Shown here piece by piece: positions 44,353 to 45,134 of a stretch of DNA of 64,000 nucleotides (the stretch's first letter is position 1; every line of letters starts with the position of its first letter). Origin of the DNA: Escherichia phage vB_EcoM_EP32a; the sequence record OR544954; one strand, 5' to 3'. The notes below the pieces were generated by a model. That model was not told the DNA's origin. It was given only the letters and a program-made list of their open reading frames with translations, and did no database searches. The translations under genes and the position numbers were made by a program.

Positions 44353-44426
44353 GGCCCTGTAGCTCAATGGTTAGCAGCAGTCCCCTCATAAGGGAAAGGT
44401 TACCAGTTCGAATCTGGTCTGGGTCA
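44353..44426 (+). tRNA. tRNA with anticodon CAU (Met or Ile2-type)
   Basis: Hand-folded cloverleaf: acceptor ggccctg pairs with ctgggtc (one U-U), D-loop with GG, anticodon loop cuCAUaa, T-arm accag-TTCGAAT-ctggt; D-stem only 3 bp. Confidence 0.6.
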
Positions 44427-44432
44427 TATATT

Positions 44433-44509
44433 CGAGGCATAGCTCAATTGTATAGAGCAACGGACTTCTAATCCGTAGGTTGAAGGTTAGAATCCTTCTG
44501 TCTCGACCA
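44433..44509 (+). tRNA. tRNA-Arg (anticodon UCU), CCA encoded
   Basis: Acceptor cgaggca/tgtctcg, D-stem gctc/gagc, anticodon stem acgga/tccgt with loop cuUCUaa, T-arm gaagg-TTAGAAT-ccttc, discriminator A plus CCA. Confidence 0.8.
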
Positions 44510-44527
44510 ACTTTAAGTGAGGAAAAT

Positions 44528-44923
44528 ATGAAAGGCAATGTTTATCTGGTAGTTCATGATTTAACGTTTTATTTTAACGAACGTGAAACAGTTATTTCCG
44601 ACCGGTTGATTAATTCGTTATATCAACACGCTGATTACGTTTATTTCCAAAATGAATTTGGCCATTGGAAGTTCATTAAAAACCGTTCTGGGTTAACTAG
44701 TTTTGAATACTTTGACCGTAAAGACCTTTTAAACGAAATCCCATTGCAACATCGGTTCCAGAAACGCGAATCATTATATTATTGCCGTCATATATCAAAT
44801 GCTGAATGTGTTGATGAAGTAATTAATCTATGGCGTAGACGTAGAGAAAACAAATTGATGATATGTCAAAATAAGAAGCCGGGTCGCTACCGGCAAGTCG
44901 TCGGACTGATGTTCCCTGAGTAA
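44528..44923 (+). CDS. hypothetical basic protein embedded in the tRNA cluster
   Basis: ORF track starts at 44480 inside tRNA-Arg; RBS gaggaaa plus Met at 44528 (MKGNVYLVVHDL...), 131 aa; no GIY-YIG or HNH motif seen. Confidence 0.55.
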   Translation: MKGNVYLVVHDLTFYFNERETVISDRLINSLYQHADYVYFQNEFGHWKFIKNRSGLTSFEYFDRKDLLNEIPLQHRFQKRESLYYCRHISNAECVDEVINLWRRRRENKLMICQNKKPGRYRQVVGLMFPE

Positions 44924-45042
44924 GGACTGGTCTTAATAAATCTTTACGATTTGTTAATATCCCCTTACATCACAGCAGAAACGGCGCACCGAATTATCGA
45001 TTCGAGGAAATATCTTTGCCGTAAGCCGAGTAGCGTTTTTGA

Positions 45043-45134
45043 CGGAACGTTCGGATATGGTCGAGATATGGCCTTTTAAAAATATTGAGTAGCGTCAACT
45101 GCTTAATAACCGGGTTCGAATCCCGGCGTTTCGT
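45043..45134 (+). ncRNA. tRNA-like element (canonical T-arm and 7-bp acceptor stem, non-canonical interior)
   Basis: ccggg-TTCGAAT-cccgg T-arm; cggaacg pairs 7/7 with cgtttcg; D and anticodon arms could not be folded canonically by eye. Possible type II tRNA, pseudo-tRNA or stable RNA. Confidence 0.35.

Follow-up and report, generated by a model that had tools for sequence, protein, structure and literature searches.

Stable RNA genes in the tRNA region

We analyzed a 64,000-nucleotide stretch of Escherichia phage vB_EcoM_EP32a (sequence record OR544954), referred to here as the window. Its source is an RB69/APCEc01-like T-even phage (Mosigvirus). Our interest was the region around positions 44353 to 45134, which an earlier annotation made from the letters alone (the sequence-only reading) had described as a reduced tRNA cluster. 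Two tRNA genes, an open reading frame (ORF) and orthologs of both stable RNAs of phage T4, rnaD and rnaC, lie here between a conserved leader and an intrinsic terminator. In window coordinates, the features are:

44271-44340, plus strand: leader, homologous to the T4 sequence immediately upstream of tRNA-Gln (blastn of the T4 cluster against the window)
44353-44426, plus strand: tRNA-Ile, anticodon CAU, no encoded CCA (ARAGORN; Rfam, 54 bits; T4 orthology)
44433-44509, plus strand: tRNA-Arg(UCU), AGA reader, CCA encoded (ARAGORN; Rfam, 71 bits)
44528-44923, plus strand: ORF of the RB69ORF150c family (phrog_3355), function unknown, 131 amino acids (ATG start; PHROG match)
44871-44990, plus strand: ortholog of rnaD, the T4 "species 2 RNA" (about 88% identity to T4 rnaD)
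44997-45135, plus strand: ortholog of rnaC, the T4 "species 1 RNA", 139 nt (T4 alignment; annotation in relatives)
45136-45214, plus strand: conserved trailer and intrinsic terminator, a GC-rich hairpin at 45187-45209 followed by a U-run (terminator scan; fold)

We regard this locus as the Mosigvirus (RB69-type) version of the T4 tRNA region, arranged as tRNA-Ile, tRNA-Arg, orphan ORF, rnaD, rnaC and terminator. Our confidence of about 0.85 covers the explanation as a whole, including the layout of the transcription unit, the fold of rnaC and the proposed processing and tRNA mimicry; homology, boundaries and covariation-based structure are established by the analysis itself. T4 rnaC and rnaD have been known since the 1970s. 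The locus is also already known: relatives carry annotations of it, and a 2006 publication described the two-tRNA cluster of RB69-type phages. Mosigvirus genomes (e.g., APCEc01, JK45 and ATK47) match the region at 95-97% identity. The sequence-only reading had placed it at the position of the T4 tRNA region without segB, and this is borne out by synteny, with trna.4, trna.3 and trna.2 upstream and e.6 downstream of the cluster, and by the absence of segB from the 64-kb window. The cluster is also, as claimed, reduced relative to T4, holding just tRNA-Ile(CAU) and tRNA-Arg(UCU), as published for RB69 (PMC1524935). What did not survive is the claim that these are the only parts and that the stable RNAs of T4 are missing, since both rnaD and rnaC are present.

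At 137 of 139 bases, the segment 44997-45135 is identical to T4 rnaC. The two substitutions (U to C at 45062 and A to G at 45101) both preserve base pairs. This segment is detected by nhmmer with an E value of 1.5e-42 as the sole copy in the window, and the homologous stretch is annotated as rnaC in ATK47, RB27, RB59 and GiZh. In ATK47, the label reads "rnaC, small stable RNA; species 1 RNA".

The rnaD ortholog was overlooked by the sequence-only reading because its first 53 nt sit inside the end of the ORF. RNAalifold, applied to 13 sequences, resolves it into a 5' hairpin, a long-range closing stem and a variable central hairpin, with compensatory changes in 9 of 34 pairs. The minimum free energy (MFE) is -38.1 kcal/mol (z = -3.49). 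A 6-nt spacer, conserved relative to T4, separates rnaD from rnaC. We found rnaD only in Tequatrovirus and Mosigvirus; elsewhere, a tRNA sits in its place.

In the layout that we propose, tRNA-Ile(CAU), tRNA-Arg(UCU), the ORF (a member of a 114-amino-acid family), rnaD, rnaC and the terminator would form one transcription unit in this order. The leader leads directly into tRNA-Ile. The window lacks the six T4 tRNAs that run from Gln to Thr, and blastn of the T4 cluster revealed no remnants of them in it. At the other end, the trailer is about 94% identical to its T4 counterpart, and the tRNA/rnaD/rnaC transcription unit ends at the terminator. Between rnaC and the terminator hairpin lie 50 nt (45136-45186) that likewise match T4 at about 94% identity and could fold into a separate hairpin, GCCUU...AAGGC; taken alone, this fold is not significant (z = -1.2). 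Accumulation as a stable RNA of about 140 nt is demonstrated for T4 only, where RNAC and RNAD were detected by northern blot (PMC9697503), and is predicted for the phage studied here.

We collected rnaC copies from 41 loci, which yielded 29 distinct mature-length sequences from seven phage genera: Tequatrovirus, Mosigvirus, Moonvirus, Kanagawavirus, Karamvirus, Gelderlandvirus and Marfavirus. They fall into two sequence classes that differ in the middle of the molecule. The gene is always co-oriented with tRNA clusters and located inside or at the end of them. In Moon, SonariX, VIPECLUMC02, Melville and Proteus phage ABTNLPp2, it is directly flanked on both sides by tRNA genes, 1-10 nt away (for example tRNA-Trp, rnaC, tRNA-Gly), and the fold is maintained whether rnaC stands between tRNAs or after the ORF and rnaD. 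The family was seen only in phages of Enterobacterales. A scan of 185,579 bacterial and archaeal genomes found no rnaC, its one match being spurious and located in GC-rich coding sequence. A loose pattern search of IMG/VR returned 113 loci, with no real rnaC among the new ones by nhmmer, and a metagenome scan added two further Klebsiella-type copies but no new loop variants.

Some copies deviate at their 3' end or T loop. Those of Klebsiella phages (L030, L032-L034, L143 and L144) encode a true U-CCA 3' end; all others encode U-ACA. In the CIP9/Kanagawavirus group (L008, L011, L024 and L027), the T loop reads UGCAUGC, a divergence that leaves the T stem and the remaining fold intact. In GenBank, rnaC is often mis-annotated because tRNA finders latch onto its T arm: it is labeled tRNA-Lys in phage 55 and tRNA-Met in SonariX and the Klebsiella kv_tblp phages, and the records of Marfa and Kosakonia 305 have hypothetical-protein coding sequences drawn over it. 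The mis-annotated loci are L003:2341-2434, L007:1554-1648, L042:416-553 and L039:506-634.

Structure of rnaC

Covariation in 29 sequences supports a structure in which the 139 nt of rnaC form a four-way junction with the shape of an oversized cloverleaf. Its elements are the following:

44998-45004, plus strand: P1, 5' strand CGAUUCG, pairs with 45127-45133 (covariation, 29 sequences)
45005-45074, plus strand: P2, long irregular hairpin with base GAG/CCU and tip stem CGUUU/GAACG (covariation)
45039-45044, plus strand: L2, loop motif UUGACG, complementary to L3 (covariation; duplex -5.5 kcal/mol)
45083-45108, plus strand: P3, hairpin with a 10-bp stem and loop CGUCAA at 45093-45098 (covariation)
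45110-45126, plus strand: P4, T arm CCGGG UUCGAAU CCCGG (sequence; covariation)
45127-45133, plus strand: P1, 3' strand CGUUUCG, followed by a U at the discriminator position and then ACA (covariation)

The full 139-nt rnaC folds with an MFE of -50.2 kcal/mol (z = -4.55). Unconstrained RNAalifold returned the same junction, with 24 of 38 pairs compensatory, and independent MFE folds of orthologs from both classes gave it in 13 of 15 cases; in the MFE folds of KMB17 and PEi20, the P1 stem and the T arm form and the interior deviates. When the named structure was evaluated on the 29 sequences, 96.3% of the cells were paired and both sides had changed in 22 of 41 pairs. Not one of 500 shuffles reached these values, and slid controls were only 35-48% paired.

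P1 resembles an acceptor stem. It joins seven positions from the true 5' and 3' ends, five of them as standard pairs around two invariant central U.U mismatches. Each of the 29 sequences retains the five standard pairs counted, one of which swaps between G-C (16 sequences) and A-U (13), and the ensemble pair probability is 0.79-0.97. As it would in a tRNA, the T arm P4 sits right next to the 3' strand of P1; its middle pair is G-C in 14 sequences and U-A in 12. The D and anticodon arms are replaced by the long hairpin P2 and the 10-bp hairpin P3, whose loops pair with each other. All five tip-stem pairs of P2 are compensatory, and its outer and middle pairs covary; in P3, compensatory change occurs in nine of the ten pairs. 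The L2-L3 loop-loop interaction has six pairs, none of which is lost in any of the 29 sequences. One A-U pair of the loops has become G-C in the Klebsiella-phage clade, so that UUGGCG faces CGCCAA, and this compensated U-to-C change is the only variation of the P3 loop. Apart from it, the single-stranded motifs GAGGA, UUGACG and CGUCAA and the AAAAU junction are invariant across genera. Lacking an anticodon arm, rnaC would be unable to decode.

The sequence-only reading had delimited an element at 45043-45134 with a perfect T arm and a 7-bp acceptor pairing, to be explained as a type II tRNA, a decayed tRNA or a stable RNA. The T arm is indeed there, and a 7-bp helix, with one G.U among its pairs, can form between CGGAACG (45043-45049) and CGUUUCG (45127-45133). 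The boundaries, in contrast, were misplaced: the element is the 3' two-thirds of rnaC and no gene of its own, as the conserved unit begins 46 nt upstream. Among the three options, the stable RNA was thus the correct one, and covariation in the 29 orthologs speaks against the other two.

We give almost no credence to a separate tRNA gene of about 92 nt at this place, be it type II or tRNA-Sec-like with a long extra arm, or to a decaying tRNA pseudogene. Such a gene could account for the canonical T arm, for the internal acceptor of 7 bp (8 bp with an A-U) that can form in the window, for the end-to-end alignment of the Rfam tRNA-Sec model and for the ARAGORN calls of the ortholog as tRNA-Lys(UUU) in phage 55 and as tRNA-Met(CAU) in SonariX, which GenBank labels likewise. 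However, ARAGORN reports no tRNA at 45043-45134 in the window or at the T4 equivalent, and Rfam finds no RF00005 match at this site, the only hit being tRNA-Sec (RF01852) at 16.6 bits (E = 3.6), far under the gathering score of 47. In the folds that ARAGORN draws for the orthologs, the D and anticodon stems are mismatched, and the supposed anticodon is not conserved, reading UUU in phage 55 and CAU in SonariX. Across the 29 orthologs, the internal acceptor has 86% of its cells paired and not a single compensatory change; its third pair is broken in 14 of them and class B sequences carry a different 5' strand, whereas none of the 29 has lost the pairing between the true 5' and 3' ends. Imposing the internal acceptor on the window rnaC carries a penalty of 13.3 kcal/mol, and in the ensemble its probability is about 0. 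A 95-nt piece around the element folds at z = -2.8. The 46 nt upstream are equally conserved and paired with the interior, and a decaying pseudogene would not give 22 covarying pairs across seven genera. We therefore rejected the type II tRNA and tRNA-Sec interpretations on the grounds of covariation, mismatched ARAGORN folds and energy.

The two tRNAs, the ORF and the flanking regions

ARAGORN finds exactly two tRNA genes in the whole 64-kb window, and Rfam concurs with 54 and 71 bits, in agreement with the CAU tRNA and the tRNA-Arg(UCU) recognized in the sequence-only reading. Rfam scans, run on the whole window at the gathering threshold and on the locus at a permissive one, yield only the two tRNAs as passing hits; rnaC and rnaD fall within no family. 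The CAU tRNA is identical to T4 tRNA-Ile at 73 of 74 bases, which marks it as a predicted lysidine-type AUA reader and not a tRNA-Met. Its sequence contains C4-G69 and C5-G68, pairs that count among the identity elements for TilS and IleRS. CAU tRNAs of T4-like phages bear tRNA-Ile signatures and have been taken as lysidine-modified AUA readers (Nolan et al., PMC1524935), the role that the sequence of this tRNA predicts for it. The tRNA-Arg(UCU) does not align with T4 tRNA-Arg and is not its ortholog; it is homologous to the tRNA-Arg of Tequatrovirus KIT03. In the 57 long ORFs of the window, AUA and AGA are used at 12.0 and 7.1 per thousand codons. Both codons are several-fold rarer in Escherichia coli, and this codon use fits the keeping of exactly these two tRNAs. 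RB69 has likewise been reported to have two tRNAs, Ile CAU (given with an asterisk) and Arg UCU (PMC1524935, Tables 1 and 4).

The module of tRNA-Arg, ORF, rnaD, rnaC and terminator (window 44433-45215) aligns at 85% identity with KIT03 (locus L146), a Tequatrovirus with ten tRNAs plus segB. Since KIT03 shares this module, while the sequence of the T4 tRNA-Arg is unrelated and T4 lacks the ORF, it is T4 that is the atypical genome here. Another variant of the locus is found in AV114, a natural Mosigvirus (L009:1370-1602) that is devoid of tRNA-Arg, the ORF, rnaD and the first ~115 nt of rnaC. A recombination in the T loop joins a tRNA-Asn-like 5' part to the rnaC 3' end. The CAU tRNA of AV114 is also chimeric and has merely its first ~18 nt in common with that of the window.

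A basic ORF of 131 amino acids had been described between the tRNAs and the tRNA-like element. The ORF itself exists: it has an ATG start and a good Shine-Dalgarno sequence (GAGGAAA), and is nested inside a longer ORF starting with TTG. Its length and part of its basic C-terminus result from a window-specific shift of the frame into rnaD, which can be traced to the following site:

44847-44850, plus strand: A-run AAAA with a +2 indel (AA or AG in six relatives)

The relatives of the ORF are all 114-116 amino acids long and have the C-terminal end ...RRRREQIDDMPK. In the window, the +2 shift replaces this end by a tail of 24 residues that is the translation of rnaD, so that the ORF covers the first 53 nt of the RNA gene; the match to PHROG 3355 (function unknown) spans residues 1-109. 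The shift may be genuine or may stem from a sequencing error in the homopolymer, and the ORF of the window is best treated as a frameshifted copy or as the product of such an error.

The ORF family comprises 425 phage records, always of about 114 amino acids. It is tiny and phage-only, with seven matches in a search of 5.8 billion proteins and eight in a profile search of 1.84 billion representatives. As the sequence-only reading had stated, the ORF is no recognizable nuclease. It has no match in NCBIfam, PADLOC or the sequences of the PDB, and none in Pfam at E <= 1 except for a chance match to Cys_box. In a tblastn search of the window, SegB gave only an E value of 8.9 at a place other than the ORF. 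An AlphaFold2 model is mediocre (predicted local distance difference test score, pLDDT, 63.7), and Foldseek found nothing at E < 0.4 in the PDB. A Seg/Mob homing endonuclease (GIY-YIG or HNH) was accordingly rejected, as the ORF shows no catalytic domain, no SegB similarity and no structural match to one.

On the upstream side, an ORF of 140 amino acids (43851-44273; phrog_2290, function unknown) lies between the trna.2 homolog and the tRNA leader and has no T4 counterpart among the neighboring genes compared. On the downstream side, the relatives APCEc01, ATK47 and phage 55 have one more ORF, 465-627 nt long, located past the rnaC terminator and ahead of the following gene (loci L002:2558-3022, L003:2548-3174 and L008:2023-2649), in a slot that corresponds to the position after 45215 of the window. 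These ORFs, checked as possible homing endonucleases, have no Pfam match. The extra ORF is absent from both the window and NBG1, indicating a variable insertion slot after the terminator.

Possible roles and comparison with known systems

Based on its architecture, we propose that the acceptor and T-arm minihelix would let host RNase P, acting at the 5' end, and 3' trimming excise rnaC from the transcript of the tRNA cluster, and that the same minihelix would keep the excised RNA stable. Processing of this tRNA type would explain the constant placement of rnaC between tRNA genes in other genera. The residue preceding P1 is a U in most rnaC copies, and U is the preferred -1 base for RNase P. 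Beyond processing, the most likely role that we infer for rnaC is that of a tRNA mimic, engaging a tRNA-binding factor of the host or of the phage. The literature searched assigns no function to rnaC or rnaD, and T4 reviews and omics papers state it as unknown (PMC3014915, PMC9697503).

Several points weigh against this account, and the mimicry in it is a proposal. P1 contains only five standard pairs, placed around two U.U mismatches, and its single covarying pair splits by clade, which a single evolutionary event might explain. For the loop-loop pairing, too, there is one compensatory event, that of the Klebsiella-phage clade. In most members, the encoded 3' tail of rnaC is U-ACA and not U-CCA. 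The ends of rnaC and rnaD in this phage are carried over from the T4 annotation, and their expression is predicted. Finally, the deletion in AV114 indicates that both RNAs are dispensable on at least some hosts.

Three other views of what the two RNAs do were considered. If rnaC and rnaD had no function in trans, they could be structured spacer or processing modules that do no more than help the neighboring tRNAs, or the transcript at its 3' end, to mature or remain stable; their abundance would then be a by-product of stable folds. Both RNAs are co-oriented with and embedded in tRNA clusters or stand at the 3' end just before the terminator, the natural deletion in AV114 shows their dispensability, and ~50 years have brought no function to light (PMC3014915). 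Nevertheless, we consider this view somewhat unlikely, because the invariant motifs (GAGGA, UUGACG, CGUCAA and the AAAAU junction) and the loop complementarity exceed the needs of a spacer, and the rnaC fold is kept in differing contexts, between tRNAs as well as after the ORF and rnaD. A spacer would also sit poorly with a 2025 evolution experiment, in which a convergent single-nucleotide polymorphism (SNP) in rnaD arose as a T4-like phage adapted to the semi-permissive host ECOR34 (PMC12685909).

The same SNP, together with the U-CCA end of the Klebsiella-phage copies, hints at a trans-acting tRNA mimic. In its most specific form, rnaC, perhaps together with rnaD, would be an uncatalogued RNA of this kind, a kissing-loop cloverleaf without an Rfam family and conserved in at least seven T-even genera infecting Enterobacterales, which recruits or titrates a tRNA-binding factor (e.g., a defense nuclease or a processing, repair or charging enzyme) and thereby affects host range; this version strikes us as quite unlikely. 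We judge it very unlikely that rnaC is a tRNA decoy or a chargeable tRNA-like RNA directed against a host system that acts on tRNAs, for which anticodon nucleases (e.g., PrrC or RloC), PARIS and tRNA-modifying or tRNA-repair enzymes are candidates. An acceptor/T-arm module with a U at the discriminator position, which ends in U-CCA in Klebsiella phages, would suit such a decoy, as would a family confined to phages of Enterobacterales and missing from the bacterial and archaeal genomes scanned, and the appearance of an rnaD SNP during host adaptation (PMC12685909). Against it stand the "anticodon" loop called by ARAGORN, which is not conserved, and the ACA 3' end of most members.

For the two long-unexplained RNAs, the rnaC model and the spread of the family over genera supply natural deletion variants as well as concrete mutations with which their roles can be tested. 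We regard the structural model and the genus distribution of rnaC as useful additions and claim no priority over the structure work on species 1 RNA of the 1970s.

T4 rnaC (139 nt; NC_000866 70908-71046) occupies the same place after rnaD and before the same trailer and terminator, on the same strand as the tRNAs, and has the same predicted fold. T4 rnaD (119 nt; NC_000866 71053-71171) shares the 5' hairpin, the closing stem and the 6-nt spacer before rnaC, while the central hairpin has diverged with compensating changes. In T4, rnaD follows 1 nt after tRNA-Arg, whereas in the window it follows a protein-coding gene that overlaps it through the frameshift. The closest known arrangement is the RB69/Mosigvirus tRNA region with two tRNAs, RB69ORF150c and, as in ATK47, rnaC, which has the same gene order at 94-97% identity. 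The window differs from it in the +2 frameshift of the ORF (131 instead of 114 amino acids) and, relative to APCEc01, ATK47 and phage 55, in the missing 465-627-nt ORF after the terminator.

Among RNAs with tRNA-like domains, such as tmRNA, YrlA/Y-RNA-like RNAs and viral tRNA-like structures, rnaC shares the idea of an acceptor/T-arm mimic assembled from the two ends of a non-tRNA RNA. It differs from tmRNA and YrlA in that ARAGORN detects no tmRNA, no tag ORF is present and Rfam gives no tmRNA or YrlA match at the rnaC site. Type II tRNAs and bacterial tRNA-Sec resemble rnaC in their T arm, acceptor-like stem, long extra arm and cloverleaf topology, and the internal alternative pairing would give an 8/5 acceptor/T arrangement. 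Unlike these tRNAs, rnaC has no covariation support for D and anticodon arms and no conserved anticodon, and its true acceptor uses a 5' end located 46 nt upstream.

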